A stretch of DNA of 64,000 nucleotides from Verrucomicrobiia bacterium (GCA_963664225.1 OY760937.1:1664001-1728000), one strand, 5' to 3'. Positions 6,560 to 25,477 are shown, counted from the stretch's first letter. A program made the numbers and translations. The notes: generated from the sequence alone by a model not told the origin.

Positions 6560-9295
6560 TTATTTCTTGATCTTCTTTTCCGCATCCTCCACTGCGGATT
6601 TCAGCGCCGGGTCATCGACCAGTGCCACCGCTTGATCCCGGATTTTTTCAGCCTCCGCCTTATGTCCCGCGCCAACCAGTATCTCAATCAATTGATTCAG
6701 ATTGCGAACGAACCGTTTATCCGCCTCGCGCATCATATCCATCCGGGGCGCAATCCCGGCCGGCATATTCGTCGGGACCGGCAAACTGGCCCGTCGCTGA
6801 TACATTTTCTTCTCCATCTCCCACGCGCTGCGATTGGATTCAAACCGCCTTTGCGGATCGCCCATGTAATTAAAACACAGTTCATACTCGCCTTTCTTCA
6901 CTAACAGGCTCTCCACATAAAAATAGCATTGTTTGGCCAGCGCGGGATCGCGTTTCTGGAGGATCTTGAACAGCACATAGCTCCCATCATCGTCCTGAAG
7001 GTAACCATTAATGCTCACAACGTCCGAAAACAACTGGGAATAACCGCCTCCCTCCGCAAGCTTTCGGGTCTTTTCGTCACGCACTTCGATCAACGCCTGC
7101 CAGGCCTTGGGATATCGCCGTCCCAGTTCCATCCAATCGGCCAGCCAGAAGGAAAGACGCACACCACCCTGGCCCTGGTCGTATTCCAAGGCGTGGTTGT
7201 GATACCAGATGTGCCGTTGAAGCGCCTCTTCGTATCGGCCCTGGCTCATCGCATCATTGGCTTCCTGCCGGATCTTTTCAAAATCCGGCTTCGTGTCCGG
7301 CGACAGCGTTGGGGCCCACGTTTCAGCCGAAGCGGAGGGTTTGACAGGCTTGGCATCCGCGCTGGCAAGGGTGTTTTCCGCAAGCGTGGGTTCCAATTCA
7401 ACCGATAATACCGCCAGATGCTTGCGGCCATTCCCAATCCCATTATCTTCCATCAGATCGAACTCGCCGAGTCGCACGCTATTACTGCGCAGCATTTGTT
7501 TGGAAGCGGAGCCGCTGTTCGTGCCGGGGGCTGGAACCAATCCGCTCAGTGAATAATCGACCCAGTAGGAACCCATCTTTAACGTCGGCTTCACGAAGAG
7601 CGTCTTTACGATGCCACCCGTAATGGCCATCGTTCCCGCTCGCACTGTGGAAAGGTTCGCCGTATCAGGAATATCGATTTCGCCTTCAACTCCATTGGTC
7701 ACCAGAACATAAGGCGCGGCCACCACCCGCACATCGCCATGATCAAACAACGCCGCCGGACGGCTGATGAGACGGGTATCGTAGTCCGCCGGCATGTCGA
7801 GAATTCGTAGCGTCACACGCAACAGCGGCGCGTAAGCAGCGGGCTGCCGGGCCACTCCAATCGCGAAATGATGCCGGAGTACCAGCCTGTCAAAGGCGTA
7901 CAAGAGCAGCATCAGTCCGGCTAAGCCAGTGACGGCTTTCTGAACCTTCGACGAACTCAAGGCCGACCAGATCGACCCGCTTCGCGGTGATGATCCTTCC
8001 GGTTCACCGCCTGATCTCGGCGTCGTTGAATTTGGCTTCTCAAAACGCGCGCCGCAATCCGCGCAGATCTTTGCCGTCCCGTTGGTGTTATTACCGCAAT
8101 TCGAGCAAATCAGTTTTAAGGCCATCCGCCCGCCGATCATGAGCAGGACCAGCCCCAGTGGAATTCCGATGTAAGGGACAAACAAACATGCGAATCCAAT
8201 GGCCTGCACGGCGCATCCGACACCAAGAAATTCCCCCTTCTTTTTCTTTGTTGCATACACCACCGGCGGTGCGTCGGATTTGGCCTCTCCGGTTTTCCCG
8301 ATTGGCGGAATGCCGGCGCTGGCTGAAATCGTTTCCACCCGCGTCTTCACCTCGTCCGCGCTCGCGAAACGTTTCTCCTTTTCCCTCTCCAGCGCACGCG
8401 CCACAACGGCGTCCACACGCGGATCGGCGGCGGATTTCTGCGAGGGCGGCGCGAACCGCCCGACCGGCAGCTCGCCCGTGAGCATTTCGTAAAAGACCAC
8501 GCCCAGCGAGTAAATGTCAGCCCGATTATCCACGCTCTGCGGATGATCGCGCTGCTCCGGCGCCATGTAATTCGGCGTGCCAAGGGCCTTGCCTGCCTCG
8601 GTCAGCGAGTCGCCCTCCGGCAGTGTCTTTGCGGCCTGCGGATTCACGGGCACATCCTGCCCCGCGTCCCCGATCAATTTTGCGATGCCAAAATCCGCGA
8701 TCTTCACCCGGCCCTTCGCATCCAGCAGGATGTTCTCGGGCTTGATGTCCCGGTGGAGAATGCCTTCATTGTGCGCGAATTGCAGCGCCTCGCAAATTTT
8801 CGGAACAATCGCCAGCGCCTGCGCCGGTGTGAACCGCCCCGCCTGCATCGCCTGACGCAAATTCACGCCATCCACAAACTCCATCAGCAGGTAAAAAAAC
8901 TCCCCGGCCTGGCCAAAGTCGTAAACGGTAACGATATTTGGATGATTGAGCCGGGCCAGCAGACGCGCCTCGCGGTTGAAACGCTCCGCAAATGTGGGAT
9001 CGGCCGCCAGCGCTTGCGGCAGAATCTTCAGCGCGACGAATCGATCCAGCTTGGGCTGGCGCGCCTTGAAAATGAAACCCATCCCTCCCTGACCGAACAA
9101 CTCGAGTATTTCGAGCTGTGGAAAGGCGGCGGCAATCGCCTCCAGCGATGGCGCAGGCGAACCTCCGCGCGGCAGGCCACCGGTTTCCGTGGGATTGGCC
9201 ACAGCCGCCAGCAGGCATTTTGGGCAAAGTCCCTGCGGCGCATCCGCGGGCAGCGGGGCCTGGCACTTCGGACAACGATTCATTTCAGTTTGCAT
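6560..9295 (-). CDS. Membrane-anchored Hanks-type Ser/Thr protein kinase
   Basis: GQGGMG, VALK, HRDIKPEN, DFG, GTPNYMAPE; N-terminal CPKC...CPKC; TM segments. Probable start at 9295. Confidence 0.93.
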   Translation of the reverse strand: MQTEMNRCPKCQAPLPADAPQGLCPKCLLAAVANPTETGGLPRGGSPAPSLEAIAAAFPQLEILELFGQGGMGFIFKARQPKLDRFVALKILPQALAADPTFAERFNREARLLARLNHPNIVTVYDFGQAGEFFYLLMEFVDGVNLRQAMQAGRFTPAQALAIVPKICEALQFAHNEGILHRDIKPENILLDAKGRVKIADFGIAKLIGDAGQDVPVNPQAAKTLPEGDSLTEAGKALGTPNYMAPEQRDHPQSVDNRADIYSLGVVFYEMLTGELPVGRFAPPSQKSAADPRVDAVVARALEREKEKRFASADEVKTRVETISASAGIPPIGKTGEAKSDAPPVVYATKKKKGEFLGVGCAVQAIGFACLFVPYIGIPLGLVLLMIGGRMALKLICSNCGNNTNGTAKICADCGARFEKPNSTTPRSGGEPEGSSPRSGSIWSALSSSKVQKAVTGLAGLMLLLYAFDRLVLRHHFAIGVARQPAAYAPLLRVTLRILDMPADYDTRLISRPAALFDHGDVRVVAAPYVLVTNGVEGEIDIPDTANLSTVRAGTMAITGGIVKTLFVKPTLKMGSYWVDYSLSGLVPAPGTNSGSASKQMLRSNSVRLGEFDLMEDNGIGNGRKHLAVLSVELEPTLAENTLASADAKPVKPSASAETWAPTLSPDTKPDFEKIRQEANDAMSQGRYEEALQRHIWYHNHALEYDQGQGGVRLSFWLADWMELGRRYPKAWQALIEVRDEKTRKLAEGGGYSQLFSDVVSINGYLQDDDGSYVLFKILQKRDPALAKQCYFYVESLLVKKGEYELCFNYMGDPQRRFESNRSAWEMEKKMYQRRASLPVPTNMPAGIAPRMDMMREADKRFVRNLNQLIEILVGAGHKAEAEKIRDQAVALVDDPALKSAVEDAEKKIKK

Positions 9296-9419
9296 CCTGC
9301 CACATTCCTGAGGAAACCATGACCCGACGTTACACAAAATCCGCCATCCTGGCGATGAATTGATGGAGAAGGCAAAACCCAATTTGGGTGACTGAAGCCG
9401 GTCTTCGGAAGACACAAAC

Positions 9420-9647
9420 CTACCTCATTACCGGGCTGTCACTCCAAGGCCCGGGGATGCAGCCATAGAGGCGCTCAAACAATCTGCGTCTTCGTTCAGT
9501 CTCCGATAACCCTGGAGGAAAGGAGGCGTGGATCATCACCAGCGCCGCATCAAACATCTGCGCCCCCATGATGAAACGCTCCTCCCCCGAGCGCGCCATG
9601 ATCTTTTCGCGCACCATCCGTTCAATCTCTGGACGGGTGTCAGTCAT
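9420..9647 (-). CDS. Small hypothetical protein coupled to the nucleotidyltransferase (possible antitoxin)
   Basis: MTDTRPEIERMVREKIMARSGEERFIMGAQMF; start overlaps the end of the upstream gene. Confidence 0.7.
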   Translation of the reverse strand: MTDTRPEIERMVREKIMARSGEERFIMGAQMFDAALVMIHASFPPGLSETERRRRLFERLYGCIPGPWSDSPVMR

Positions 9648-10179
9648 GCAAACATTCTTCCAGCAACCTATCCAATCCCAGATCAACAGTCCATCGTTTC
9701 AAATAAAACTCATCAAAACCGGTTGCAAGCAGGTTCTTCACGTCGCGAAGCTGAACTTCCGAATGTGAATCCTTGGCCCAGAACAACTTGGAAATAATCA
9801 AATCCTCCTTGCTGACAATCCATGTGGTAAAATCCAAAAGTGTGATTTTCTGGCGTCGCTCAAATTCCGTCCGGCGGTATTCGCTACTCTTTCGCACGAT
9901 GCAGTCCACCTTGATCAAACTCTCCAAATGAACCAGATTGAAAATCGATTCGCAGGCCACAGACTCGCGCACGCTTTCTTCGCTCACATAATAGGCAGTT
10001 CCAAACAGGCGAATGATCGTCTCGACATCCCGCGCCACAAGGGCGACGACAAGATCAATATCGCGGGTCATTCGAGGCTGCGCGAAATAATTCATCGCCA
10101 TCGAACCTGTCAACATATACGGGATCCCCGCCTCCTCAAGCTTGCGAGAAACATCCCGAATTACATCAATCTCATTCAT
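9640..10179 (-). CDS. Nucleotidyltransferase-fold protein (DUF6036/AbiEii-like)
   Basis: Pol-beta-type motif GSMA...PRMTRDIDLV, plus EDLIISKL and a terminal D-V motif. Confidence 0.8.
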   Translation of the reverse strand: MNEIDVIRDVSRKLEEAGIPYMLTGSMAMNYFAQPRMTRDIDLVVALVARDVETIIRLFGTAYYVSEESVRESVACESIFNLVHLESLIKVDCIVRKSSEYRRTEFERRQKITLLDFTTWIVSKEDLIISKLFWAKDSHSEVQLRDVKNLLATGFDEFYLKRWTVDLGLDRLLEECLHD

Positions 10180-10474
10180 TTCGATTCCTACTCAACGATT
10201 TTAATACTCCCCGGCATATTGCCATGCATACGACCGACATTCCGAGCAATCTCACGCTCAGCCGCGCCCCAAACCGAGCTGAATGTTGAAACTCAAGCGG
10301 CTAGTCACCCTGCCCCAGGAATGTTTATCCCGCAATCCGCATCGCTCGCAAATAAAGGTAAAGGTATCAAACCATGATTTCGTTCGGTTTGAGCGCTTGA
10401 ATAAATCGCTGTTGGATGTTCGCTTTCACCCTGCCCTCCGCCGTCCTCCTTACGATCTTGAAATTAATTTCTCT

Positions 10475-10942
10475 ATCCGTGGCATCCGTCATATCCGTGG
10501 TTAAAAATCTGCCCCTGCCAACCCCACGCGGCGGCAGTTCCCAAAGCATCCAAACAACCCGGCATCTCTCAATACGCCTTCTCCCCGGGAAGGCAGGATG
10601 AGAATTCCCCTAACCCGAAATTTCGCGCATTGAACCCCTGAACCAAATATTTATGCATGTTGCTTGTAACGAGTGACATCCCCTTTGGGTTCTTGGGGAG
10701 GGCGTGCGTCAATGCCATTTTCCCTTTCGCATGGTTCGCATATTTCGTGGTTAAATTCCCTCTCTGAATTCCCAATTATCGGCGTTCATTCGCGGTTATT
10801 AGTTCTCCATGGTTAAATCTTTTCCTCCTGGTCCTAATCTGTGTTTCTCTGAGCCATCTGCGGATTTCCCCTGCTTATCCCAATCCGTGCCATCCGTGAT
10901 ATCAGTGGTTAAAAATCCTGCACATCCTGCTTATCCATGTTG
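10475..10942 (+). repeat. Cluster of co-oriented 9-10-nt-periodic triplet motifs, most ending GGTT(AAA)
   Basis: Examples: ATCCGTGGC-ATCCGTCAT-ATCCGTGGTTAAA (10475), TTTCGCATG-GTTCGCATA-TTTCGTGGTTAAA (10725), ATCCGTGCC-ATCCGTGAT-ATCAGTGGTTAAA (10883), ATCCTGCAC-ATCCTGCTT-ATCCATGTT (10916). Confidence 0.75.
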
Positions 10943-11023
10943 ATATATCTTCACCCACTTCTTTCCATGTAACTTGCAATGTGGGCTTGCTTCGATAAAT
11001 CGGACACAGAAGACACATATAGG

Positions 11024-11866
11024 TTATTTGGATATATTTTCAAAGTCAACAGGAGACATGTAATTGAGTGTGCTGTGTAAACGCTGTCGATTATAGAAGG
11101 TCTCGATGTAATCAAAGATGGCCTGTCGGGCCTGGGCTCGGGTCGCAAAGACCCGGCGATAAACCAGTTCTTGTTTAAGGGTGCTCCAAAAGGATTCCAT
11201 GGCCGCGTTGTCATAGCAGTTGCCACTGCGGCTCATGCTCGCCAGGGCACCGGAGGTTTCCATCGCCCGGCGATAATCCTGACTGGCATACTGGACTCCC
11301 CGGTCTGAATGAAAGAGCAATCCGGGTTCGGGTTGCCGCTGAATGCAGGCCATGTTCCAGGCCGACAGGACCAGTTCGGTGTCAATGTGCTCGCTCATGC
11401 CCCAACCCACGATGCGGCGGCTGTAAAGGTCTTCAATGCCAGCGAGATAGAGCCAGCCTTCATCGGTGGCAATGTAGGTGATGTCCCCGACCCAAGTCTG
11501 ATTGCGTTGGTCCGGTGGCGCGGCTTGAGCCAGCCGGTTGGGGGCAATGGGCTGATCATGATTGCTGTCGGTGGTTCGGACCTTGAAACGCTTTTTAGAA
11601 CGCGCCTGCAGGCCTTCCTGGCGCATTAAACGGGCGATGTGGTTGCGACCATGGCAGTGCCCCTGGTGCTTCAAGGCGATCTGGATGCGCGGGCTGCCAT
11701 AGGTTTTGCGGCTGCCATTGAAAATCGTTGTGATGGTCCCTTTCAATACGGCGTCCTGACGGGCACGCAACGAAGGCTGGATTTGCCGTCGGCACCAATC
11801 ATAGTAGCCGCTAAAAGACACATCAAAGGCCTCACAGAGCAGGCGGATGGGATGATCGACTTTCAT
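11024..11866 (-). CDS. IS3 transposase OrfB (rve/DDE)
   Basis: YGSPRI, WVGDITYI, HSDRGVQY, DNAAMESFWSTLKQE, YNRQRLHSTL. Confidence 0.95.
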   Translation of the reverse strand: MKVDHPIRLLCEAFDVSFSGYYDWCRRQIQPSLRARQDAVLKGTITTIFNGSRKTYGSPRIQIALKHQGHCHGRNHIARLMRQEGLQARSKKRFKVRTTDSNHDQPIAPNRLAQAAPPDQRNQTWVGDITYIATDEGWLYLAGIEDLYSRRIVGWGMSEHIDTELVLSAWNMACIQRQPEPGLLFHSDRGVQYASQDYRRAMETSGALASMSRSGNCYDNAAMESFWSTLKQELVYRRVFATRAQARQAIFDYIETFYNRQRLHSTLNYMSPVDFENISK

Positions 11867-12216
11867 CGCTTCAACCCGTTGATAGCGTTGCTCTGGGGGT
11901 CCGAAAGAATTCCCAACGTTTTTTTTAGAATCTCCCGCTGCTGGCGCACATAGTCCAGTTCGCGCAACAAAGCGGCATTGTCGGCCAGCAACTGCTCACG
12001 GGTCTTTGTTTCGGCTCCTTCCCCTGTTGGCAGCGGCACATATTTTGCGCGCCAGGCATAGAGCCGCTCCATTTTTATCCCCAACTCAGCCGCCACCGTG
12101 GCTGCCGATTTCCCGCTGGATTTCCAGAGGTTCACGGCTTCCTGCTTAAATGCAGAATCATACTTCGGATGAGTCTTGGAATCGGGAATCACAGATTGCT
12201 TCATACGGTTTTTCAT
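11863..12216 (-). CDS. IS3 transposase OrfA (HTH)
   Basis: KYDSAFKQEAV...VAAELGI...LYAW...EILKK. ATGA overlap with orfB, and an A8 slippery run at 11919-11926 (minus strand). Confidence 0.9.
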   Translation of the reverse strand: MKNRMKQSVIPDSKTHPKYDSAFKQEAVNLWKSSGKSAATVAAELGIKMERLYAWRAKYVPLPTGEGAETKTREQLLADNAALLRELDYVRQQREILKKTLGILSDPQSNAINGLKR

Positions 12217-12533
12217 TAAGTTTCGCTCCGCTCCTGTGTCCGTCAAATCGGGGCAACCTCATCCCTCCCAGCCCCAGCGGGGCGACATGTTTATCGGCCA
12301 TCCAAACGGATTCCCCAATTCCACCGCAGCTCGTCCGGTTACTGGCCCCCGGGCAACCCGGAACGGGTTGCATCACTCAGCCCCGGGTTGCCCGCCGGGG
12401 GCTACCCGGGGTCCTCGTCCCTCAGAATCCCCAACGCTGTAGGCGTTGAATCATATCCCATCCTGTCCACCCATGCATAAATGTCTTTTCTGCCATTATG
12501 CGTTCTTTTCCTTTGTGGTCTTTGAGCTCTCTG

Positions 12534-14500
12534 GAAAGCGCCAAGCAAAGTTTGGTGGCTGTAGTCAAATGCAACGAGTTGATCATGATAACAGGTCGAG
12601 AGTCATGTAGCCGCGTCCAAAGCGTGGTGGGGCGACCCGCCGCGTTCAAGCTGGGCAAGGCAAAGGTGCGAGCCGTAGCGTCTGCGAACTCGATTCAGCC
12701 TCGTTACTCTAAAGCGGGAGTGGCCAGCCTGTCAGAGAAGGTGAAGCCAGCATTGGAGGGGAAGATTCGACCAGAAGCACCCTTCAAGCTCCCCGGGGTC
12801 AGAGGAGACAGCGCGTACCCAAACAACCATCAGGAACTTGGGAGACCCTGCCTGAACCTCGGTCCCGAGACCGGGGAACGCACGTCGGGAAGCCATAACC
12901 GGCGGGCGCTCAGGATCAGGGAGTCGGACGGGCTCATAGTAGCTGCGAAATCCCGGTCAAGCCGGGATGGAGCCAAGGAGCCCTGGCCAGAGTCAAGCCG
13001 AGTCAGAGGGAACTGGAGCTGATTGAAGTGAAAACTTCCACGACAGAACAAGCGGTGGAGGAACTTTCCTTTCGGGAAGCGATCCTGCCGCCCAAACTTC
13101 AGGAACTGAGACAGAAGCTGGGCCGGAAAGCCAAACAAGAGAAGCGATTCCGCTTCTACAGCCTCTACGGACTGGTGTTCCTGCCGGAGGTGCTGCAAGC
13201 GGCATGGGCTGCGGTGCGGCGCAATGGCGGGGCACCGGGCGTGGACGGAGTGAGCATCGACCAGATCACCGCGACACCTGAAAGTGAAGCGGCGTTTCTG
13301 GGAACGATCAGGCAGAGCCTGCGGGACAAGACCTACCGCGCCCAACCGGTGCGGCGGGTCTATATACCGAAGGCAAACGGAAAACTGCGGCCACTGGGAA
13401 TCCCGACGGTGAAGGACCGGGTGGTGCAAGCGGCGGTATTGCTGATTCTGGAGCCCATCTTCGAAGCGGACTTTGAGGATTGTTCCTACGGGTTTCGGCC
13501 CGGACGGTCGGCGCACGACGCATTGCAAACCCTCCAAAAACACCTGAAGGAGGGGAAGAACGCAGTGTATGACGCGGACCTGTCCGGATACTTCGACAGC
13601 ATCCCTCACGACAAGCTTCTGGCTTGCGTGCGGATGCGCGTGGTGGACGGCGCGGTTTTGGGACTCATCCGGCAATGGCTGGCGGCCCCCGTGGTGGAAC
13701 CTCCCCAAGGAGAGGAACCGCCTCGGGTCAACCGCCGGGATCGGGGCACGCCGCAAGGCGGAGTCCTCTCTCCGTTACTGGCCAACATATACCTGCACTG
13801 GTTCGACCACCTGTTCCAAAGGGCGGATGGACCGGCGCACTGGGCGGATGCCCGGCTCGTTCGCTATGCGGACGACTTTGTGGTCATGGCCCGGTATATG
13901 GGTCCCAAGCTGCGAGCATGGATTGAGGAAAAGCTGGAGGGCTGGCTCACACTGGAAATCAACCGGGACAAAACCCGGGTGGTCAACGTCAACGAGCAAA
14001 GCCTGGACTTTCTGGGCTACACCTTCCGGTATGACCGGGATCAATTCGGCAGGGCGTTTCACTACCTCAACCTGTGTCCTTCGGGCAAGGCGATGGAACG
14101 GGAGAGGCAGGCGTTGCGACTGCTGATCAATGCCGGGCAAAGTCATACGCCGCTGCCGGAGTTGATCGGGCGGATCAACCGTCATTTGCGGGGTTGGAGC
14201 AACTACTTCAACCTCGGACAACCCCGACGGGCCTTTCGCCAGATCAACCACTTCGTGAGAGTGCGGCTGGGCAAACACCTGCGACGACGAAGCCAGCGGG
14301 GCTGGCGCGTCCGTCAGGGAGTCACGCTCTATGCCCATCTCGAAACACTGGGTCTGAAGGCATTGTGAATGCAATCTGGAAAAGACGACTCTGGCGAAAG
14401 CCGGATGTGGGAAATCTGCATGTCCGGTTTGACGAGGGAGAGGTGAGCGGCGGTCATTGGCCTTTGCGCCTTTCATCCCGTGCTCTCCTCTCTACTCTAC
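12534..14500 (+). mobile_element. Complete group II intron (1967 nt)
   Basis: Empty sites in the sister repeats read GAGCTCTCTG|CGGTTG. Domain V AAGCCGGATGTGGGAAATCTGCATGTCCGGTTT at ~14398-14430; domain VI with bulged A14494; ends AC. EBS1 CAGAGA (12733-12738) is complementary to IBS1 TCTCTG (12528-12533). Confidence 0.92.
13028..14368 (+). CDS. ltrA: Group II intron reverse transcriptase/maturase (no C-terminal endonuclease)
   Basis: [48 protein letters not shown], domain X GWSNYF; 446 aa. Confidence 0.95.
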
Positions 14501-15658
14501 CGGTTGATTAATTCCTCCGAATCCTGTCCATCCTGATCATCCATGTCTGTTCTGAACATTTTTCGTCTGCCGAAGAACCTTGTCGTGCACCCAATTCTCC
14601 ATTCCCTGCATTATCGCATCCCTCCAAGCCCCAGCGGGGCGAAATCTTTATCGGCCATCCAAACCGATCCCCTAATTCCACCGCAGGTCGTCCGGTTACT
14701 GGCCCCCAGGGCAACCCGGAACGGGTTGCATCACTCAGCCCCGGGTTGCCCGCCGAGGGCTACCCGGGGTCCTCGTCCTTCAGAATCCCCAACGCTGTAG
14801 GCGTTGAATCATATCCCATCCTGTCCACCCATGCATAAATGTCTTTTCTGCCATTATGCGTTCTTTTTCTTTGTGGTCTTTGAGCTCTCTGCGGTTGATT
14901 AATTCCTCCGAATCCTGTCCATCCTGATCATCCATGTCTGTTCCGAACGTTTTTCGCCTGCCGAAGAACCTTGTCGTGCACCCAATTCTCCATTCCCTGC
15001 ATTATCGCATCCCTCCCAGCCCCGGCGGGGCGACATGTTTATAGCAAAAGCCACCTCTCGCGACCAATTCCAAGCCCCAGCGGGGCGACATGTTTATCCG
15101 CCATCCAAACGGATTCCCCAATTCCACCGCAGCTCGTCCGGTTACTGGCCCCCAGGCAACCCGGAACGGGTTGCATCACTCAGCCCCGGGTTGCCCGCCG
15201 GGGGCTACCCGAGGTCCTCGTCCCTCAGAATCCCCAACGCTGTAGGCGTTGAATCATATCCCACCCTGTCCACCCATGCATAAATGTCTTTTCTGCCATT
15301 ATGCGTTCTTTTTCTTTGTGGTCTTTGAGCTCTCTGCGGTTGATTAATTCCTCCGAATCCTGTCCATCCTGATCATCCATGTCTGTTCTGAACGTTTTTC
15401 GCCTGCCGAAGAACCTTGTCGTGCACCCAAAACCGAAGCTGTTGGATACTCCACCCCCTGTTTTCCCTGAAACCTCCGCGCCCCTTTTCCCCGCCCATAG
15501 CCTTCCGCTCCCCGCTGCTTCCCGCTGCTTCCCGCTGCCTCCCGCCGACCATTATTGCCTCACAAACCACTTGACGCTATTTTCATGGAGGCACACTCTG
15601 CGATTCAACACGGAGAAATGAGCACAAACATGATCAAACTTACCGGTTTTCTTGCCAT

Positions 15659-15757
15659 GGATAACCTCTCGCAACCGTCGCCAGCCGGTAGGTGCATTCA
15701 TATGTCTTCATCTCCGGTTCAATATCCCGACCGCTCGTCGCTTAATCACCGTTAGGC
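15659..15757 (+). other. Degenerate attC-like site 1
   Basis: GGATAAC...GTTAGGC (R' at 15751-15757), 6 nt before the first cassette ATG. Internal symmetry is poor. Confidence 0.5.
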
Positions 15758-15763
15758 TGAAGC

Positions 15764-16090
15764 ATGAAAAAGTTTGCAATAATTCTATCCGTTATAAACG
15801 CGCTCACGCTTTTCTATCTCATTTTCACGGCTAGAATAGAGCTTCCCCATTGGCAAGAGCCATTTGAGAAAATTAGGGAGAGGATTGCCGAATTTAAGCC
15901 GGCAACTTCAGAGCAGGAACTTTGGATTATGCTTTTGAAGTCAAATGTGGGAACGGCGGAAGGTTGGTCTAGGATTGTAATTAATGAGTATCGCAGGGGA
16001 GAAATACCTTTGCTTGTATTGACGATGTTTAATATTATTGGTTTTACTATTATGGCAATCAAACCATATACAACTAGCGTTAGAAAATGA
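15764..16090 (+). CDS. Cassette ORF: hypothetical 2-TM protein, AT-rich
   Basis: 108 aa, hydrophobic N- and C-termini, visibly low GC, lies between attC sites. Confidence 0.75.
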   Translation: MKKFAIILSVINALTLFYLIFTARIELPHWQEPFEKIRERIAEFKPATSEQELWIMLLKSNVGTAEGWSRIVINEYRRGEIPLLVLTMFNIIGFTIMAIKPYTTSVRK

Positions 16091-16094
16091 TTCA

Positions 16095-16200
16095 GCTTAA
16101 CCAGTCGCCGGAGCCAGTCACCGTTGGCGCTTGCCGTCCCGCTTCCCGCTATCGCGGTTCGCGTCGCGAGTCGGCGGTCGCTCAGCTTTTTTCGTTCGCC
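16095..16200 (+). other. attC site 2
   Basis: GCTTAAC-cagtcgccggagcc...ggcggtcgctcagctttttt-c-GTTCGCC. R'' nearly complements the upstream R' GTTAGGC. Confidence 0.85.
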
Positions 16201-16205
16201 TTAAG

Positions 16206-16655
16206 ATGAGACGCGTTACAAAAATTATTCTCACACTCGGCATTGCGGTAGCGGTAGCGGTCGCTGCACTCGTGCTTTTCGCGTTTAGCTCTGGTCGTGA
16301 AGACAAAGGGAAACATTTGACTCGTGTTGATTGGTTGCCGGCGGAAGCCAGCGATGTAACCTTCGTTAAAAGTGAAGGCTTCGGATGGTTCACTTGTTAT
16401 GAGTGCGGCCTGCCTAAAGAGGCGTTTGAACGTTTGGCCCAGAAAAAAAAGTGGAGGCCGGAGCCGAAGACCGACGTTTCCACGGGTTTACGGCACGTCC
16501 TTGGTCTTCCGGCGCTGAAAAAGACAGAATACGGAGACACCGATTCAGTCGCAAACGCCCTGTTCTACGAGAATCGCCAACCGAATGGCGGCGGCATCAC
16601 GGTCATTTACGATCTCGACGGCAATCGCTTGTTTGTCCATGAAAGCCACAGATAA
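16206..16655 (+). CDS. Cassette ORF: hypothetical exported or membrane-anchored protein
   Basis: ATG 5 nt after R'; N-terminal hydrophobic segment; stop just before the next R''. Confidence 0.8.
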   Translation: MRRVTKIILTLGIAVAVAVAALVLFAFSSGREDKGKHLTRVDWLPAEASDVTFVKSEGFGWFTCYECGLPKEAFERLAQKKKWRPEPKTDVSTGLRHVLGLPALKKTEYGDTDSVANALFYENRQPNGGGITVIYDLDGNRLFVHESHR

Positions 16656-16661
16656 GCCAAA

Positions 16662-16757
16662 GGCGAACCATCCGCATGCAGCTAACAGCCGCCTCCACAG
16701 TTGTCCGCAATTTGAGAGTATTGGGAGGACGGCTGTAACTGATGTGGAATTTTCGAC
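16662..16757 (+). other. attC site 3 (R' degenerate)
   Basis: R'' GGCGAAC is the exact complement of the cassette's own 5' GTTCGCC. Arms acagccgcctcc...ggaggacggctgt. R' reads TTTCGAC. Confidence 0.75.
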
Positions 16758-16765
16758 ATAACCTT

Positions 16766-17158
16766 ATGTGGCCATTTCGTAAGAACCATCGGGAGGAGGA
16801 CATTGACCAAAAGCGATTGAATGCCTTCGGCCCGCTCGCGGTAGTGTCATCCATGTGCATCGGCCCCCAGCGGTTCCCCGTCATGCACGGCATCAGGGAA
16901 GCACCCAATAACATCTCGGACAGTGGGTGGACACTTTCCAGCTGCCAGGAGTCGAAAGACTTCGCGGCAGATTCGAACAATTTCAAGCTCGTTCCGCTTG
17001 AGCGCATGATTGACACGGATTCGACGCTGGCGCTCCTCAAGGACTTACCCGTGGGAACGGAGATCACCCGCCGGGAGGTGTCCGAGCCCTGGCGGTTTAT
17101 TGTTGATAACAAGGTCGTAGACGAGGACGGGAGGGTCGTAGGAGGGTTGAGCGAGTGA
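16766..17158 (+). CDS. Cassette ORF: DUF2185/Imm33-like protein
   Basis: Pattern REAP...DSGW...LxLPVGT. Confidence 0.7.
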   Translation: MWPFRKNHREEDIDQKRLNAFGPLAVVSSMCIGPQRFPVMHGIREAPNNISDSGWTLSSCQESKDFAADSNNFKLVPLERMIDTDSTLALLKDLPVGTEITRREVSEPWRFIVDNKVVDEDGRVVGGLSE

Positions 17159-17160
17159 GC

Positions 17161-17258
17161 GCCGAACCCCTGGTTGAAGGCAACGCCGGACGGCCGCTTC
17201 AGTTCCGCTTTCTCGGTTTAAATCACAGGCCTGGCGTGTGTGAGTTCTGGCGTTGCGC
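17161..17258 (+). other. attC site 4
   Basis: GCCGAAC 2 nt after the stop; acgccgg...ctggcgt arms; cagttccgct...cggtt core similar to site 2; GTT box at 17252 (alternative at 17262). Confidence 0.75.
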
Positions 17259-17277
17259 GGCGTTCGCCACATGATAT

Positions 17278-17613
17278 ATGCAAGCCCAGCATTTCAAGAC
17301 CGATAGACGGTTGTGGGTTTGTTTTGCTTTGGTTGCTTTCGCAGCGCTTTGGTTTGTTCGCATGATTCCGTTTCCAGACGAGACAGTTCGCCCTTATGTG
17401 TGTTGGATTGCCATTTTTAAGACGCCGACAGCTTACGGTTGGGCTTGGAAAGATGGAGTTCATATCTTGAAAGAATTGCCTGGTATTATGTTGTTCATTT
17501 TAGTGATGTCCCTGATTTTAAGCATCCCATCATTGGTGATTGGTTGGGTGCTTCAAGGATTAGTTGTGTTTTATCGCCAGATCAAGATGGATAGGCATGA
17601 CCACACCGCCTAA
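17278..17613 (+). CDS. Cassette ORF: hypothetical membrane protein
   Basis: 111 aa, hydrophobic; stop lies in GCCTAA, an R''-like remnant. Confidence 0.7.
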   Translation: MQAQHFKTDRRLWVCFALVAFAALWFVRMIPFPDETVRPYVCWIAIFKTPTAYGWAWKDGVHILKELPGIMLFILVMSLILSIPSLVIGWVLQGLVVFYRQIKMDRHDHTA

Positions 17614-18097
17614 ATTTTTGCCAACCCAGGTCGCCAGCATTTTGCTCCTGGCATCAGCGGCGGCTCAGTCGTTCGTATGCGTCTTGATTGCTTGGATCGT
17701 TCCTCCAGCGTTTCACTCCATCTACCGCTTGAAGTCCTTGCATGAGGCATGGGACCTCATGCCGCCCATCACCCGATTCGCCTCGGAGAATTCGTGGCTC
17801 ATCGTCATTGCACTTGGAGCAGTGTGCCTCGGCTCGCTTCTGGCTCTGCGGCGCTTTCCAGAACGCACGATTCATTGCATGACAGTTGGTTTGTGTGCGG
17901 AGGGTTTTGTGACTTGGTTGGCCATGTTCTGTTTCTGCTTCGACGGTTTCACTGGCCCGATGAGCCTGCACCACGGCCCAGAGTTTGAGCTTCCGCAGTT
18001 CATATCCTTTGGAGCAGGAGTTTTCCCTGTGACACTCCTGCTTGTCGTAGCACCGATTATCGCTGCATTGTGGCCACGAGTGAATTCCAAACCATGA
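17597..18097 (+). CDS. Cassette ORF: hypothetical 4-TM protein
   Basis: Four hydrophobic segments; start uncertain. Confidence 0.65.
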   Translation: MTTPPKFLPTQVASILLLASAAAQSFVCVLIAWIVPPAFHSIYRLKSLHEAWDLMPPITRFASENSWLIVIALGAVCLGSLLALRRFPERTIHCMTVGLCAEGFVTWLAMFCFCFDGFTGPMSLHHGPEFELPQFISFGAGVFPVTLLLVVAPIIAALWPRVNSKP

Positions 18098-18104
18098 AGT
18101 TGTG

Positions 18105-18151
18105 ACCTGACAAGTCACCGAATCGGCGGTGGCGCAGCCTCAGCGTAGCGC
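18105..18151 (+). other. Internally deleted attC remnant
   Basis: ACCTGAC-aagtcaccg is joined directly to aatcggcggtggcgcagc. These match the left and right arms of site 2 with the middle missing. Confidence 0.55.
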
Positions 18152-18400
18152 AGCTTGCCTAAGCTGCTGTATCGCCGGTTGCCAACCGGCAGGCTTGAAA
18201 ATGAATAATCGCAATCGCAATCTCAATCCCCGTCACCGGCACTCACGGAACGGCCCGCCCCCACCCTGCCCTGGCGGCCATGAGTCTCAATCGCAACATC
18301 ATTTCGCTCCTAGCATTTTCCATTGTCAATTATCCATTTCCATTCTCATTCCCTCCCATCCCCGGCGGGGCGGCATTTTATCCACCATCCAAACCACCCG
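18145..18400. repeat. GTAG-type REP-like element plus 6-mer and 7-mer microrepeats and a degenerate piece of the tandem unit
   Basis: GTAGCGCAGCTTgcctAAGCTGC; (AATCGC)-like x4 at 18207-18230; CATTTTC-CATTGTC-AATTATC-CATTTCC-CATTCTC at 18314-18348; CCCCGGCGGGGCGGCAT...CCATCCAAAC. Confidence 0.6.
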
Positions 18401-18411
18401 CTGCCAGCCGC

Positions 18412-19818
18412 TCACAGCTTGACCACCCTGTAAAATTTCCTGGGTTGATTCCGGGTGGAATCGAAGACCGACATATTTGTTCCGGTGCCGGGAATTATGG
18501 CGCCAAGGTTTTGCCAGACAGCGGGTGCGGCCTCGGAGGACCATTGCACCTGGTATTGCGTGTTGGTCTCGGACAGCCAGCCAACTTCCACTGCGGTCCA
18601 AATCTGAACCGTCGCTGTGGCCACCGGAGCCGGAGGATCGCCCCAAAGCCGTGCGCTGTAGGTGCGGCCCACCGACGCAACATTGAAGAAATCGCCGCAG
18701 ATCACGATCTTTCCGTCGGCCTGCAAGGCGACACCGCGCACCTTGGAATCCGGTCCCACACCAGCGTCGAAGGTCGCATCCAGGAGGCCGTTGCCGTTGA
18801 GTCGGGCGATGTTATTGCGCTTGGAACCATTGACAGTGCCAAAGCGCCCGCCAATCAGAATCCGATTATCGGATTGAATGGCGATGCAATAGATGGATCC
18901 GGAGCTGTTGGCTGTGAATGTCGCATCCCGTGAGCCATCGGCGTTCAGACGCGCAATGTAGTTTTGCGTGGCTCCATTTACCTTGGAGAACGCCCCACCA
19001 ATCACCGCCTGGCCATTGCTTTGCAGGACAATCGCATACACATCATAATCGAGGCCGATCGTGAATCCCGAATCCACTGATCCGTCGTTGTTAAGCTGGA
19101 CCATGTATGGATGGCTCGCGTTGGACACATTCTTGAACTGGCCGCCCACGAGTATCTTCCCATCGGATCGAATCGCCAGCGCGTTGACGTAGTAATCAGC
19201 GGGCGCGCTGAAATTCGTATCCAGGGAGCCGTCCGCATTGAGCCGCGCCAGATAGTTCCGGGAAACGCCGTTCACAGTCGTAAAGGCGCCGCCGATGACG
19301 ATCTTGCCATCAGGTTGAACGCAAGCCGCGTAAACATCCCCATTGGCGCCCGAAAACTGACCGAAGGTTGGATCGATGCTTCCATCCGCATTCAGCCGGG
19401 CAACCCCGCGCCAGGCCGCCCCGTTGATGTTCCAAAAATCTCCCACCACGACAATCCGCCCGTCTTTCTGGACAACGAACGCCCGCACCAGGTCATCCGG
19501 CCCCGTGAGCACCGCAAAAGCAGGATCCACAGTTCCGTCGGGGTTGAGCCGCGTCATGTTGTTTTGAACGGTCCCATTGACCTTTGTGAAATCGCCCCCG
19601 AGTAGAATCTTCCCATCCGCCTGTATCGCAACCGCCGGCGCTCCCGTCACAAAACCCGTCAGAACCGGGTCGAAACTCACATCGAGCGTTCCCGGCGCAG
19701 GGTCGGCCTGGCACAGGACCAGGCTCACCAAAAGGGAAACGAATGCCTGCGTAAGAAACGGAAGGCCAAAGCCATATCGATACGACTTGCCTGTTGATTC
19801 GAGTTCTTTTGTGTTCAT
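18412..19818 (-). CDS. Secreted delta-60 repeat beta-propeller protein
   Basis: Repeats of the form QxDGKI(L/V)xGGxF...RLNxDGSxDxxF; signal peptide; C-terminal KFYRV domain. Confidence 0.9.
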   Translation of the reverse strand: MNTKELESTGKSYRYGFGLPFLTQAFVSLLVSLVLCQADPAPGTLDVSFDPVLTGFVTGAPAVAIQADGKILLGGDFTKVNGTVQNNMTRLNPDGTVDPAFAVLTGPDDLVRAFVVQKDGRIVVVGDFWNINGAAWRGVARLNADGSIDPTFGQFSGANGDVYAACVQPDGKIVIGGAFTTVNGVSRNYLARLNADGSLDTNFSAPADYYVNALAIRSDGKILVGGQFKNVSNASHPYMVQLNNDGSVDSGFTIGLDYDVYAIVLQSNGQAVIGGAFSKVNGATQNYIARLNADGSRDATFTANSSGSIYCIAIQSDNRILIGGRFGTVNGSKRNNIARLNGNGLLDATFDAGVGPDSKVRGVALQADGKIVICGDFFNVASVGRTYSARLWGDPPAPVATATVQIWTAVEVGWLSETNTQYQVQWSSEAAPAVWQNLGAIIPGTGTNMSVFDSTRNQPRKFYRVVKL

Positions 19819-20190
19819 AAGTCCATTAATTATCGTTCATCCTGATAATTGTCAAAGGCTTCCACAGTCTTATCGGGATGACGTGATTCACCCCATCGCT
19901 GGAGCAGAAATGCAACGACCCTCATGCAGGTACTGATCACGATCCAGAGAGGACGAATGCAAACTGGATCATTTTATATTGAGATCACCAAATTTAGGCG
20001 CATGATGATATCAGATCACTTTGGCTAACGACCGCCCGCATTCCTTAATAAACTTGGCTGCGCTATGAAATCCACGGCATCAACAGGTTGCGCTGATGGC
20101 GGCATCGGCATGGGAGGCCACGCGCCATTTTCAAAAATAATTCAAAGGATTTCCCCGTCAGGCTGGTCAGATAGGTTAAAAGAAAGCCGC

Positions 20191-20751
20191 ATGGGCGACA
20201 CTGATGAGGAATTACAATGGGTGTTGCAAAGCCAGAAGGGTGATCCCGCGGCCTTTGAATCGCTGATACGCAAACATCAACGCATGGTTCATTCGCTGAC
20301 ATATCGGATGACAGGCTCTCTGGACGACGCCGAAGACCTGGCCCAGGAGACCTTTATTCGCGCTTACGCCCAAATCGGCTCCTACCGGGGCGCCGCGAAA
20401 TTTTCCACATGGTTGTATCGCATCGCGGTCAATGTTTGCCTGAACTGGCGTCAACGGGAGGCCAGACGGTCGGAGCTGAACACGGATTGGGCCAGGACCA
20501 ACGAACCGCAAACCTCGCAAATCAGCGGAAACGGTCAGGCCTCCAGCGCGCGCATTCAAGAGGCCCTGATGAAGCTGCCGGCCAAACAACGCGCGGCCAT
20601 TGTGCTGACAACCTACGACGGTCTCAATCACTCCGAGGCGGCAAAGGCCCTGGGTTGCTCGGAAACCACAGTCTCATGGCGCGTGTTCTCAGCGCGCAGA
20701 AAACTCAAACGCTGGCTCGAGCCGCGGGAGGATGCAAATGAAACGCTTTGA
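20191..20751 (+). CDS. ECF sigma-70 factor
   Basis: GDPAAFESL, DAEDLAQETF, FSTWLYRIAVN, LPAKQR...TVSWR. Confidence 0.93.
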   Translation: MGDTDEELQWVLQSQKGDPAAFESLIRKHQRMVHSLTYRMTGSLDDAEDLAQETFIRAYAQIGSYRGAAKFSTWLYRIAVNVCLNWRQREARRSELNTDWARTNEPQTSQISGNGQASSARIQEALMKLPAKQRAAIVLTTYDGLNHSEAAKALGCSETTVSWRVFSARRKLKRWLEPREDANETL

Positions 20752-21091
20752 CCTGGATAAGGAACTGAAATCCGCACAAATACCGGAGCGCGGGGAGGAT
20801 TACTGGGAGTATTTTCCACGTCGGGTCGCCTCTCAACTGCGGTCAACCGAAAGTCAACCGGTTGAACGCAAACTTAGGCTGCAGGTATTAGCTTGGGGCG
20901 TAGGCACTTCCGTTGCCTGTCTGGCCCTGATTCTGACCCTTGGATTCAGTTCCGCTCCGAAGTTGCTTGCTTATGCTGTTAATCATAATAAGCAAGAGAT
21001 TAGTACAACATTGAATCAATTTTCAGAACACGTGGAAAATCTCATGCAAAACGAGCACGGCATGGAATGGCTTCTGGCCGATCAACAATAA
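20738..21091 (+). CDS. Single-TM protein, putative anti-sigma factor
   Basis: Overlaps the ECF gene; PxxxxxYWEYFPxRV motif followed by one TM segment. Confidence 0.65.
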   Translation: MKRFDLDKELKSAQIPERGEDYWEYFPRRVASQLRSTESQPVERKLRLQVLAWGVGTSVACLALILTLGFSSAPKLLAYAVNHNKQEISTTLNQFSEHVENLMQNEHGMEWLLADQQ

Positions 21092-22206
21092 TGAATCCAC
21101 ACTCCATCAACGCCGATAAAGTTTCGCCTACCGGGAAGGCGCCTGAGGAATCTTCCGCGCCACAGATCCTGGAGCAGCTTATTCACCAGGCCGAACTCGC
21201 CGCCGCCAGTGATATCCACCTGCAGATGGAATCTGACGGCGCCCGCGTTTCTTTCCGGTTGGACGGCCTGATGACGCCCGCCACCACCTATGCGCCTGAC
21301 GTGGCCGAACGTGTATTTGGGCGGATCAAATTCCTGGCGCATTTAAAAACCTACCAGGAAACGATGCCGCAGGATGGGCGCATCGATAAACAGACCGTCA
21401 ATGCCAGCAGCGACATCCGCGTGGCGACATATCCTACGGTGACCGGCGAAAAAATCGTTTTGCGCCTTTTCAACCCGGGAGCGGCCAAGGGAATTCCTGA
21501 ATTGGGAATGCCGGACGAGGCTGCAGCCGAATTAAACCGATTTCTGCGGCAAACGGCGGGCATGCTTCTTCTTACCGGTCCGGCGGGCAGTGGCAAGACA
21601 ACCACGATTTACGCCTGTCTGCGCGGCCTGGCGGATTTGGGCGGACGGCACATCATCACCGTCGAGGATCCCGTCGAGCAAATCGTGCCCGGTGTAATGC
21701 AGACGGAGGTGAACGAGGAACGGGGCTTGGACTTTGCCAAGGCCGCCCGGCATTTGCTGCGCCAGGATCCCCAGGCGCTGGTCATCGGCGAAATCCGGGA
21801 TGAAGAAACCGCCGGAATTGCCGTACGTGCGGCGCTCACCGGCCATCTGGTCATCACCACCCTGCATGCGGGTTCCTGTCGCGGGGTATTGGAACGGCTT
21901 TTGGTCATGTGCCCCGACCGTTCCGCCATCGCCTCCGCAGTGGAGTTGATTTTGAACCAGCGCCTCATGCGCAAAGTTTGTCGTCATTGCGATGGAGCAG
22001 GCTGCGTCGCCTGCATGCGCACCGGTTATCAGGGCCGGGTCCCTCTGGTGGAATGGCTCCGGACGGACGACGGATTGCGCGGCAGAATCCGCGCCCACGA
22101 ACTCCAGAATGTAATACCGCAGCGCGCCTTGGAGGATTCGGCGCAAATGCTTTTGAAACAGGGTGTCACCAACGAATCAGAATACAAGCGGGTCTTTGGC
22201 TTATGA
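21091..22206 (+). CDS. GspE/PilB-family assembly ATPase, short form
   Basis: ASDIH, PQDGR, GPAGSGKTTT, TVEDPVE, LRQDP..LVIGEIRD, TGHLV.TTLHA, tetra-Cys motif. Confidence 0.92.
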   Translation: MNPHSINADKVSPTGKAPEESSAPQILEQLIHQAELAAASDIHLQMESDGARVSFRLDGLMTPATTYAPDVAERVFGRIKFLAHLKTYQETMPQDGRIDKQTVNASSDIRVATYPTVTGEKIVLRLFNPGAAKGIPELGMPDEAAAELNRFLRQTAGMLLLTGPAGSGKTTTIYACLRGLADLGGRHIITVEDPVEQIVPGVMQTEVNEERGLDFAKAARHLLRQDPQALVIGEIRDEETAGIAVRAALTGHLVITTLHAGSCRGVLERLLVMCPDRSAIASAVELILNQRLMRKVCRHCDGAGCVACMRTGYQGRVPLVEWLRTDDGLRGRIRAHELQNVIPQRALEDSAQMLLKQGVTNESEYKRVFGL

Positions 22207-23195
22207 AAAACGATGAATTTGCATTTCTGAACCAGCAACTGGCCTCGATGCTTCGGGACGGCATTCCGCTCGAAGGGGCGTTGCAACGATTATCCGGCCA
22301 GATGGCGCATGGCGCACTGCGAACCGAACTGGAACTTTTGCAGGCGGACCTCGCCAAAGGCACCCCTCTGCGGGAGGCGGTTCGCGCGCGGCAATTGCCT
22401 GAGTTGTATCAGCAGATGCTCGAAATTGGCGCGCAAAGCAACGATCTGCCCGGAGTGCTGACACTGCTGGCCGACCACTATCAGCGCCGTTATGTCGTGT
22501 GGACGCGGCTCAAGGGGTTGATGGTTTATCCGCTCATCGTGCTCACATGTGCGTTTCTGCTCTCGTGCTTTTTGTGTTTTACATTTAACGGCCTGATTCG
22601 TGGCATGATCGGCACCAATGGAGATGGTTGGGTCATGTTGCCCACGAGTGTCCGGATTGGCGTGTGGGCTCCGCCGGTGTTCCTGGGTCTCGTCGTGGTG
22701 ATCGCCTTTCTGGCGGTGACAACCAAGGAGGCGCGCAGAGCATTGCGCTGGCGCGTGCCCGCGTTCAAGGAAGCCAGCCTGGGGCAGGTGGCCTCCGCCA
22801 TGGCACTGATGCTCAGAAGCGGTGTCTCGCTGGACAAGGCGCTGGCCTTGATGGTGACCATGGAAAAAGGGACTCCTGCCGCGCCAGAATTGGAGGGTTG
22901 GCGCAATAAACTGGCGGATGGTAGAGGCAAGTTTGCGGAAATGGCCACGGGCGGCAGATGTTTTCCACCGCTCTTTGTCTGGCTGGTGTCCCAGTCGGGC
23001 GAGAATCTGGGCGCCGGTTTCGAGAGGGCGGCGGACGTGTTTAACGCCCGCGCCAATTATCACGGGGATGTGCTGCTCTACTCGGCCCTGCCCTGTTCCA
23101 TCCTGGCGCTGGGCATGATCATCATTGTTCAGATGCAGCCCACCATTTCCGCGCTGGCCTCCTTCATGAACGCCCTTGGCAGCGTGGGGAATTAG
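22203..23195 (+). CDS. GspF/PilC-family platform protein 1
   Basis: QQLASMLRDGIPLEGAL, L..YP, second repeat MALMLRSGVSLDKAL. ATG at 22203 overlaps the ATPase stop. Confidence 0.85.
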   Translation: MKNDEFAFLNQQLASMLRDGIPLEGALQRLSGQMAHGALRTELELLQADLAKGTPLREAVRARQLPELYQQMLEIGAQSNDLPGVLTLLADHYQRRYVVWTRLKGLMVYPLIVLTCAFLLSCFLCFTFNGLIRGMIGTNGDGWVMLPTSVRIGVWAPPVFLGLVVVIAFLAVTTKEARRALRWRVPAFKEASLGQVASAMALMLRSGVSLDKALALMVTMEKGTPAAPELEGWRNKLADGRGKFAEMATGGRCFPPLFVWLVSQSGENLGAGFERAADVFNARANYHGDVLLYSALPCSILALGMIIIVQMQPTISALASFMNALGSVGN

Positions 23196-23203
23196 GAGCG
23201 ATT

Positions 23204-25244: not shown

Positions 25245-25477
25245 AAACTTCACTCCATCACCAACGTCGGTCCCGGCCTTCGCAACGCGGTTCGGCCGTG
25301 GTTGTCGTCTTTGCCCTGCTGGTCATCATGATGATGCTGGCCGCGATCAACACCGTCACCCTGAACTGGTTAAAGTCCGAAGTGCGTCTGGTTGATAAAC
25401 GACAGACCACGCGATTGACATTCTCGCATGCCAATCCTTCCACCGCCACGACCACCAATACCCCTACCGCCAAATGA
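25241..25477 (+). CDS. Very short PilX/GspK-like pilin
   Basis: QRG|SAVVVVFALLVI lacking E5; 78 aa. Confidence 0.65.
   Translation: MKTSLHHQRRSRPSQRGSAVVVVFALLVIMMMLAAINTVTLNWLKSEVRLVDKRQTTRLTFSHANPSTATTTNTPTAK

Follow-up and report, generated by a model that had tools for sequence, protein, structure and literature searches.

The intervening sequence of Coxiella burnetii 23S rRNA has been described as a 28-bp terminal inverted-repeat stem enclosing an open reading frame (ORF) for an S23p four-helix-bundle protein (PF05635), with three tandem heptamers, variable in number, ahead of the S23p start codon; in the part of that account drawn on here, RNase III cuts within the stem and the authors regard the sequence as a selfish element of unknown origin (PMC4990558). 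Repetitive extragenic palindromes (REPs) are presented in the portion used here of another account as 20-40-nt stem-loops, tagged GTAG or CGTC, that flank genes for REP-associated tyrosine transposases (RAYTs) (PMC3733652). Here we describe a family of phased repeat motifs, termed arms, that attracted attention at positions 10475-15430 of a 64,000-nt stretch of a Verrucomicrobiia bacterium genome (OY760937.1:1664001-1728000, GCA_963664225.1; the whole stretch is called the window, and the genome, a single contig of 5.78 Mb, G000). Each has about three 9-nt units, most closing in GGTT. We think it probable that small palindromic cassettes of one family have these triplet-GGTT motifs as their terminal arms, and that the G000 copies are mostly orphan single arms, amplified within mosaic repeats and used by a group II intron.

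Among published elements, the 23S rRNA intervening sequence that carries an S23p ORF comes closest to the arm cassettes. As far as the description cited above goes, both have a small ORF within terminal inverted repeats, a long stem and about three tandem repeats directly ahead of the start codon. The published sequences lie inside 23S rRNA, use heptamers and encode S23p, whereas the cassettes described here are intergenic, have 9-nt units ending in GGTTAA, carry a nuclease or nothing and number more than 100 per genome; RNase III cleavage has, in the literature we draw on, been demonstrated for the published sequences only and not for these arms. Like REPs and their composites (bacterial interspersed mosaic elements, BIMEs, and REP doublets forming hairpins, REPINs), arms are short, intergenic, mosaic, patchy among species and often set in inverted pairs or alternating arrays; unlike REPs as so described, they consist of three direct repeats, lack an internal palindrome and are absent from the flanks of RAYT genes. 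Paired arms also resemble miniature inverted-repeat transposable elements in having a short core between terminal inverted repeats of 30 nt, with longer relatives that carry a gene; they differ in having no clear target-site duplication and in that the carried gene is a small nuclease. The TTAA belongs to the arm inverted repeat, because TCAACC…GGTTGA variants exist, and a duplication is not separable from the repeat. No transposase-bearing version of the arm element was found in G000. PF13366, the family of the GxxExxY nuclease, is listed with unknown function in the part used here of a PD-(D/E)XK survey (PMC3424549). Our literature search, whose coverage stopped short of supplements and subscription journals, found no account of an arm-nuclease pairing, and the texts it reached gave GxxExxY passing mentions only.

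Arm grammar and its spread

An arm is a three-unit motif, and we name arm classes by their unit word: A (ATCCGTG), B (ATCCTG…ATCCATGT), C (TYTTTGNG), D (TTTCGYG) and E (ATCTGTG). Aligned on their terminal, the GGTT-ending classes have in common T-N-N-G-Y-G-nnn three times, then GTT(A/G)A(A/T); this served as the strict arm pattern, with the reversed pattern as control. The strict pattern matches G000 18 times and its reversal not once, and looser matches fall 41 times in intergenic and five times in coding DNA, the latter being five times larger. Period-9 self-similarity in intergenic DNA gave 159 clusters, against 59 at period 8 and 26 at period 10 (the thresholds were not identical). Intergenic GGTT[AG]A anchors had a period-9 score of at least 12 in 31 of 1280 cases, compared with 2 of 7785 GCTT and 6 of 7369 CCTT control anchors. 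Altogether there are 124 motifs in 85 intergenic regions of G000, a total that becomes 128 once the output of a second detector is merged in, and arms take up 0.36% of the intergenic bases.

When relatives were scanned, as had been suggested, the strict grammar turned up in two sets of sampled genomes: in 154 of 401 from the window's phylum (868 matches, with nine counted for the control) and in 46 of 201 taken around a Planctomycetota-labelled metagenome-assembled genome (MAG) (273 matches, with four for the control); a WOR-3-labelled MAG had 20 matches. Unit words vary from motif to motif (TCCGTG, TTCGTG, TCTGCG, TTTGCG, TTGGCG, TCGGTG…) while the three units inside one motif agree. The original prediction, that spacing and terminal are conserved rather than primary sequence, is thus upheld by a shared grammar with differing unit words, and its view that the motifs are not neutral microsatellites by the recurrence of that grammar and terminal in two phyla with near-zero controls. 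At shorter range the exact B-type word matched 77 times in G000, 37 times in G010, a genome from another family, and once in G001, a genome from the same genus as G000. G001 is about 70% identical to G000 with scrambled synteny, and breakpoints between the two were unusable; a 400-kb sample of it held one GGTT[AG]A-anchored period-9 match, probably intragenic, and one arm-like period-9 array of the non-GGTT kind.

Arms at nuclease and four-helix-bundle genes

Arms stand at both ends of GxxExxY genes. Read by eye on printed flanks, 18 PF13366 genes from six genomes (G000, G001, G010, the MAG G509 and the compared species pair G276 and G327) had a 5' arm in 18 of 18 cases and a 3' arm in 17 of 18. 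The 5' arms, in purine-strand form, lie at the start codon or overlap it, and the 3' arms, in pyrimidine-strand form, are placed likewise with respect to the stop codon; one gene takes its stop codon from the TAA of GGTT-TAA. The classes represented include A, B-like, C and E arms, as found in the window. The sole PF13366/TIGR04256 gene of G000 (1790638-1790976) has its ATG within an E-type arm and a hairpin arm pair after its stop. Strict-pattern arms also occur at further PF13366 genes, on both sides (G059 C40, G251 C6) or on one (G137, G161). At the family level the presence of the motif parallels that of PF13366, both being low in f28 (motif in 1/31 genomes, PF13366 in 4/31), f43 (5/65 and 7/65), f50 (1/24 and 1/24) and f30 (0/5 and 0/5), and both high in f27 (25/35 and 32/35), f26 (14/26 and 21/26) and f48 (7/10 and 10/10). 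Phased-repeat arms of other words flank 12 PF05635 genes in five genomes. The remark, made with the original prediction, that similar motifs stand beside GxxExxY and four-helix-bundle genes was therefore sound.

Motifs in compact genomes come in three forms: inverted pairs (TTAACC-units, loop, units-GGTTAA), tandem arrays of about 116 nt with alternating arms, and units of about 200 nt with arm termini. A gene-less element of G327 folds as a 30-bp stem (-56.6 kcal/mol, z -13.3). Two loci of G509 (L079 and L099) are 116-nt-type tandem arrays in which forward and reverse arms alternate. Arm repeats break short-read assemblies, since many contigs of G509 end within arms.

Comparison of G276 with G327 gave an occupied and a remnant site: between two conserved genes G276 has a complete cassette and G327 a degenerate 3' arm alone, at the same distance (20 nt) from the downstream start codon as in G276. 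At another orthologous gap, flanked by genes 73-84% identical, both species keep the arm pair, one arm being identical at 27 of 31 positions beside an unalignable spacer. In these two genomes the closest ORF boundary was no more than 26 nt from the GGTTAA end in 24 of 30 motifs, and from the other end in 7 of 29, with ORF calls that are noisy. At the two orthologous gaps aligned first, the species differed by genes placed precisely between the arms or next to them. Over the species pair, gene-size indels (at least 300 nt, manual tally) affected 3 of 6 motif-bearing gaps and 10 of 27 other junctions, so that the check on whether gene gain and loss breakpoints map to the motifs showed no excess at arms; we rejected arms as cassette breakpoints on this count, the idea gaining nothing beyond background because gene-size indels are common throughout this pair.

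The full cassette form, which adjacency in the six genomes establishes, consists of a purine-strand arm (TTAACC plus three phased units), an ORF of about 120-150 aa for a GxxExxY PD-(D/E)XK nuclease, and a pyrimidine-strand arm of three phased T-N-N-G-Y-G-nnn units closing in GGTTAA, with the start codon in or just past the first arm and the stop codon in or just ahead of the second. Gene-less forms occur too: two arms that enclose a short loop and make a 30-bp hairpin, alternating arms in tandem arrays, and arms on their own. Almost all copies in G000 are single arms, which may have lost the gene before being duplicated as parts of larger mosaics in intergenic DNA, and would now be largely inert relics; this link between the local arms and cassettes is suggested by their common grammar and by the classes of arm present at nuclease genes elsewhere. 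If paired arms behave in a transcript as 23S rRNA intervening sequences do, they might form a stem that RNase III could cut. The nuclease may drive the spread of the cassette, and cleavage followed by repair copying is our leading guess.

Several observations weigh against this interpretation. G000 has one GxxExxY gene for about 128 arms, and only 3 of its 35 adjacent arm pairs are inverted; because of these two figures, cassette descent of the local copies is not demonstrable. B-type arms close in ATCCATGT and not in GGTT, and their tie to cassettes comes from one G010 nuclease gene with B-like arms. The strict automatic detector caught few of the arms called by eye at the 18 nuclease genes, and some genomes, G353 and G376 among them, have arms with no PF13366 match at E <= 1e-10. 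An arm pair in G276 encloses a 132-aa ORF (L046 1536-1934) with a hydrophobic N-terminus that matched no Pfam or NCBIfam family, and its counterpart in G327 is a 22-nt loop only; since the pair encloses an unrelated ORF, arms as part of a cassette and arms as a pre-existing entry site are both possible, and small genes might instead enter pre-existing host hairpins. Arm-class labels placed on a tree of the 18 nuclease cores need 11 changes, compared with 12.0 when shuffled (as low in 55 of 200 shuffles). Transposition, cleavage and RNA processing of the cassette are all inferred, none having been observed. On the same tree only arm class H clusters (3 of 4 rows, from three genomes, with 99 in the Shimodaira-Hasegawa-like approximate likelihood ratio test, SH-aLRT), and the tree does not track genomes (10 genome-label changes among 18 rows), a mismatch that fits either mobility or old paralogy.

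Group II intron and IS3 element

A group II intron of 1967 nt (12534..14500, +; Rfam RF02005 and RF00029) with a reverse transcriptase (RT)/maturase ORF at 13028-14368 interrupts the final unit of the C-type arm in the first of three tandem units of the window, splitting that arm between ...CTCTCTG and CGGTTGATTAA. G000 has four full copies of the intron, identical or nearly so, and one diverged partial copy. When exon junctions were rebuilt for each copy, all five insertions were in one register, after the G of T-N-N-G in the last arm unit and before YGG (…TNNG^YGG…). The 5' exons end in CTCTCTG, TTCTTTG, GCTTTTG and CCATCTG, and, in the partial copy, TATTTCG; each of the four full copies has a 3' exon starting YGG (CGGTT twice, TGGAT, TGGCC) and, from the preceding arm unit, a conserved TYTGAG. 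The intron thus targets arms in a fixed register, using their last two units, and with arms occupying only 0.36% of intergenic bases such insertion is targeting. Pairing of exon-binding sites with intron-binding sites (EBS-IBS) would be the natural mechanism of recognition; candidate EBS sequences picked by eye within the Rfam D1 span are CAGAGAA at 12734 and CTCGA at 12689, while an automatic scan gave other, equally long chance pairings.

In occupying a single register of a repeat family with all its copies, the intron resembles group II introns whose homing sites are repeated mobile-element ends; unlike those introns, this one has as its target a phased-repeat arm rather than the end of an insertion sequence (IS), and its 5' end, GAAAG, is off the usual consensus. 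The 5' end (12534-12575) reads GAAAGCGCC, which is not a usual group II start and is kept in the diverged partial copy at 5595667 of G000; the Rfam D1-D4 model begins 41 nt inside the intron. The intron protein has RT and maturase domains and, in Pfam, no endonuclease domain.

The window also has an IS3-family element (10982..12261, -; orfA 11863-12246, orfB 11024-11866) about 40 nt past a B-type arm, in the repeat module associated with it. Eleven copies in G000 show no fixed register in arms, and their targets are unrelated in sequence. Target duplications of 3-4 bp accompany eight of the 11; the window copy (flanked by ATG to the left and by TCC to the right) and those at 782005 and 883395 have none, which suggests recombination between IS copies, and the left and right flanks of the window copy may for that reason not be original neighbours. 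Three of 11 copies lie within 100 nt of a detected arm, in a zone making up 2.2% of intergenic bases, and one further copy interrupts an arm that the detector missed. The proximity of IS3 to arms looks like tolerance in repeat-rich DNA and not like use of a landing site. The claim that the motifs serve mobile elements as a landing site, and that the intron is inserted exactly inside one of them, stands for the group II intron with five of five copies at one arm register, and fails for IS3.

Arrangement of arms in the window and in G000

About 540 nt of non-coding DNA between a gene at 9640-10179 (-) and the IS3 element hold five clear and two weak motifs, all seven on the + strand at 10475-10945. 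Each has about three 9-nt units with the first six positions alike and the last three variable, and in A-, C- and D-type motifs the last unit continues into GGTT(A/G)A. The series begins with an A-type arm at 10475..10509 (ATCCGTGnn three times: ATCCGTGGC ATCCGTCAT ATCCGTGGTTAAAAATC; terminal GGTTAAAAATC; one mismatch to the strict pattern), followed by a D-type arm at 10725..10759 (TTTCGC/TTCGCA/TTTCGTGGTTAAAT, ending in ...TTTCGTGGTTAAATTCC; two mismatches). Two weak or degenerate arms read by eye at 10781..10819 (…TTCGCGGTTATTAG; …CCATGGTTAAATC), the second closing in GGTTAAATC, precede an E-type arm read from the sequence at 10836..10870 (ATCTGTGTT TCTCTGAGCC ATCTGCGGATTTCC), of the same class as the arms at the G000 GxxExxY gene and the target of intron copy 4. 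An A-type arm at 10881..10917 (no mismatch) is abutted by a B-type arm at 10915..10945 (ATCCTGCAC ATCCTGCTT ATCCATGTTGATA, that is, ATCCTGnnn ATCCTGnnn ATCCATGTTGATA). GTTAAAT closes two of the motifs (10748-10754 and 10811-10817), as had been noticed.

Beyond the IS3 element, a tandem unit of about 445 nt is present in three copies, each with a C-type arm, a B-type arm and a degenerate B-like arm. In unit 1 the degenerate arm (12455..12483, +; recurring at about 14813-14841 and 15258-15286) follows a REP-like module, and the intron divides the C-type arm into a 5' part at 12504..12533 (+; …TTTGTGGTC TTTGAGCTC TCTG), its 5' exon, and a 3' part at 14501..14516 (+; CGGTTGATTAATTCC). Intact C-type arms stand on the + strand in unit 2 (14862..14907, strict pattern at 14870-14896) and unit 3 (15307..15352, strict pattern at 15315-15341), both without mismatch, and B-type arms, also +, lie at 14521..14554, 14912..14945 and 15357..15390; Tandem Repeats Finder (TRF) places period-9 arrays at 10475, 10725, 14521, 14912 and 15357. 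The REP-like module (…cagccccgggttgcccgcc…ccaacgctgtaggcgttgaa…; 12346-12450, recurring at about 14704 and 15149) is of a type that also flanks a Y1/RAYT gene, so the 445-nt unit is a mosaic of a true REP plus several arms. The predicted set of about seven triplet motifs at 10475-10942 with two more per tandem unit was thus present where it had been placed. Counted over the window only, matches with as many as two mismatches are not significant (10 matches, 5.76 expected, with 10 reached in 5 of 100 shuffles); the window matches with no or one mismatch are those of the 10475-15430 region. Contigs of four runs placed on 9000-17000 gave only joints between repeat copies, and Rfam gave nothing credible over 10300-11000 at E <= 10 and, at the gathering threshold, the intron only. 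A small ORF ending in GGT-TAA was considered and rejected: A-type arms do read …IRG-stop, yet C-type arms carry an in-frame TGA.

Neighbouring arms are co-oriented, as predicted: 22 of 25 multi-motif intergenic regions of G000 have all motifs on one strand, and adjacent arm pairs within 300 nt are same-strand in 32 cases and opposite in three. The co-orientation follows from the copying of arms as modules of mosaic repeats, every piece of 10444-10981 being found elsewhere in G000 as such modules with a fixed internal order, and an A+B composite followed by a module of about 90 nt recurring in a dozen places. Orientation relative to flanking genes has no bias (for B-type motifs the downstream gene is co-oriented 53 times and convergent 37; for G-type motifs, 27 and 28), and tandem, divergent and convergent regions bear motifs about as their length would have it (49/20/16, with length shares of 56/26/18%), on which grounds a promoter or terminator role in G000 was rejected. 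The expected enrichment beside small accessory genes did not appear, the flanking genes having a median of 343 aa, compared with 344 aa genome-wide. An autonomous transposon with arm ends was likewise discarded for G000, where the single opposite-orientation pair within 5 kb encloses ordinary genes, as was replication-linked polarity, motif orientation following local GC skew only loosely in clusters that are not independent. GC skew is positive on the + strand in two parts of G000 (0-1.3 Mb, 3.6-5.8 Mb) that make up most of the chromosome, and close to zero in the rest, with no clean two-replichore pattern; gene-strand bias suggests unequal replichores. At 4937988-4938096 a C-type unit (TCTTTGAGA) has expanded to 11 units, and units can thus act as a minisatellite.

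Some neighbouring features may be recorded. The gene at 9640-10179 (-) and its 87-aa neighbour do not bear out the proposed toxin-antitoxin-like pair, since the former has only sub-threshold nucleotidyltransferase matches (AbiEii, E 0.0028, 18 bits where the cut-off is 22.5) and the latter none. Directly past the tandem units, a C-rich period-10 repeat (GCTTCCCGCT, 3.9 copies) at 15507-15545 resembles in style the C-rich phased repeats beside a four-helix-bundle gene of G000 (3549872-3550186, locus L121). Downstream of the repeats an Imm33-family immunity-protein gene (PF09951, E 6.5e-12; 16742-17155) adjoins a 174-aa ORF without assignment.

Alternative explanations

The most serious competitor, which we still regard as unlikely, is that arms are host intergenic signals (a processed stem, an mRNA stabiliser, an insulator or a terminator) exploited by small genes and introns. 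Such signals would be kept in place, as arms are at the orthologous gap of G276 and G327, where they are better conserved than the spacer; they would sit close to genes, as the GGTTAA end does with respect to ORF boundaries (on noisy ORF calls), and would outlast a passenger, as does the 3' arm that survives ahead of a start codon after cassette loss. The arm pair around an unrelated ORF also suits this reading. Yet a host signal should take notice of the genes beside it, whereas arms in G000 have no orientation bias and use region types per length; most there are single and do not fold, the B-type word goes from 77 matches to one within a genus, and tandem arrays with contig breaks at arms look selfish. 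We give very little weight to mobilization of arms by a RAYT (Y1 HUH) transposase as REP/BIME-type elements. Mosaic arrays of alternating orientation do recall BIMEs, G000 has nine PF01797 matches, and a true REP-like module stands beside arms in the tandem units of the window and also, in inverted orientation, flanks the RAYT gene at 3202520-3202861; but single arms are not palindromic and have no GTAG or CGTC tag, none of the nine RAYT genes of G000 or the two of G010 is flanked by arms, and PF01797 occurs in 29 of 31 relatives, with or without arms.

More improbable again is the suggestion in the original prediction that arms are integron-like recombination sites, analogous to attC, of a gene-capture system. 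It drew on the two GTTAAAT endings, and arms do flank small genes elsewhere. However, GTTAAAT ends two of the roughly seven local arms, and across phyla the terminal is GGTT(A/G)A(A/T), often GTTAAT, and not consistently GTTRRRY. A search of the whole of G000 for a co-occurring integron integrase (TIGR02249) reached 82.2 bits at best where 265 is the cut-off, its tyrosine-recombinase matches, 13 in number, being sub-threshold, and the domain scan of 28 window proteins revealed neither an integron integrase nor any tyrosine recombinase. The attC array said to lie downstream was not recovered, there being no repeated imperfect palindromes at 15400-27000; the motif array at 10465-10950 folds no better than its shuffles (z -0.67); and gene indels are not in excess at arms. 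With no integrase, no attC array and no fold, we set this inference aside. Least credible of all is neutral, microsatellite-like slippage. Unit number does vary from three to five, with the one 11-unit expansion at 4937988 of G000, but slippage does not account for a grammar and terminal that recur in two phyla with near-zero controls, for six conserved and then three free positions in every unit, or for arm positions conserved between species.

Implications

We prefer the reading of the motifs as terminal arms of small nuclease cassettes, and it can be taken further, although we offer the extension tentatively and would sooner doubt it than rely on it. Arms and the GxxExxY nuclease may together constitute an undescribed class of mobile element across at least Verrucomicrobiota and Planctomycetota, in which the nuclease would recognise the phased repeats and cut gene-less arm pairs, repair would copy the gene in, RNase III would excise the element from transcripts, and the hundreds of orphan arms would be fossils, parasitised by an intron that reads two units as IBS2/IBS1. 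If this is true, excision by RNase III, made possible by the arm stem, would make an insertion tolerable, be it intergenic or within rRNA.

In environmental bacteria, few small genes of unexplained role are as common as the GxxExxY and four-helix-bundle genes. A searchable DNA grammar tied to GxxExxY genes finds both elements and relics and gives nuclease tests a concrete substrate; it also accounts for many of the spurious low-complexity ORFs called on intergenic repeats. The long-unexplained 23S rRNA intervening sequences are thereby linked to a much larger intergenic family, and G000 provides a clean case of a selfish group II intron specialised on the remains of another selfish element.

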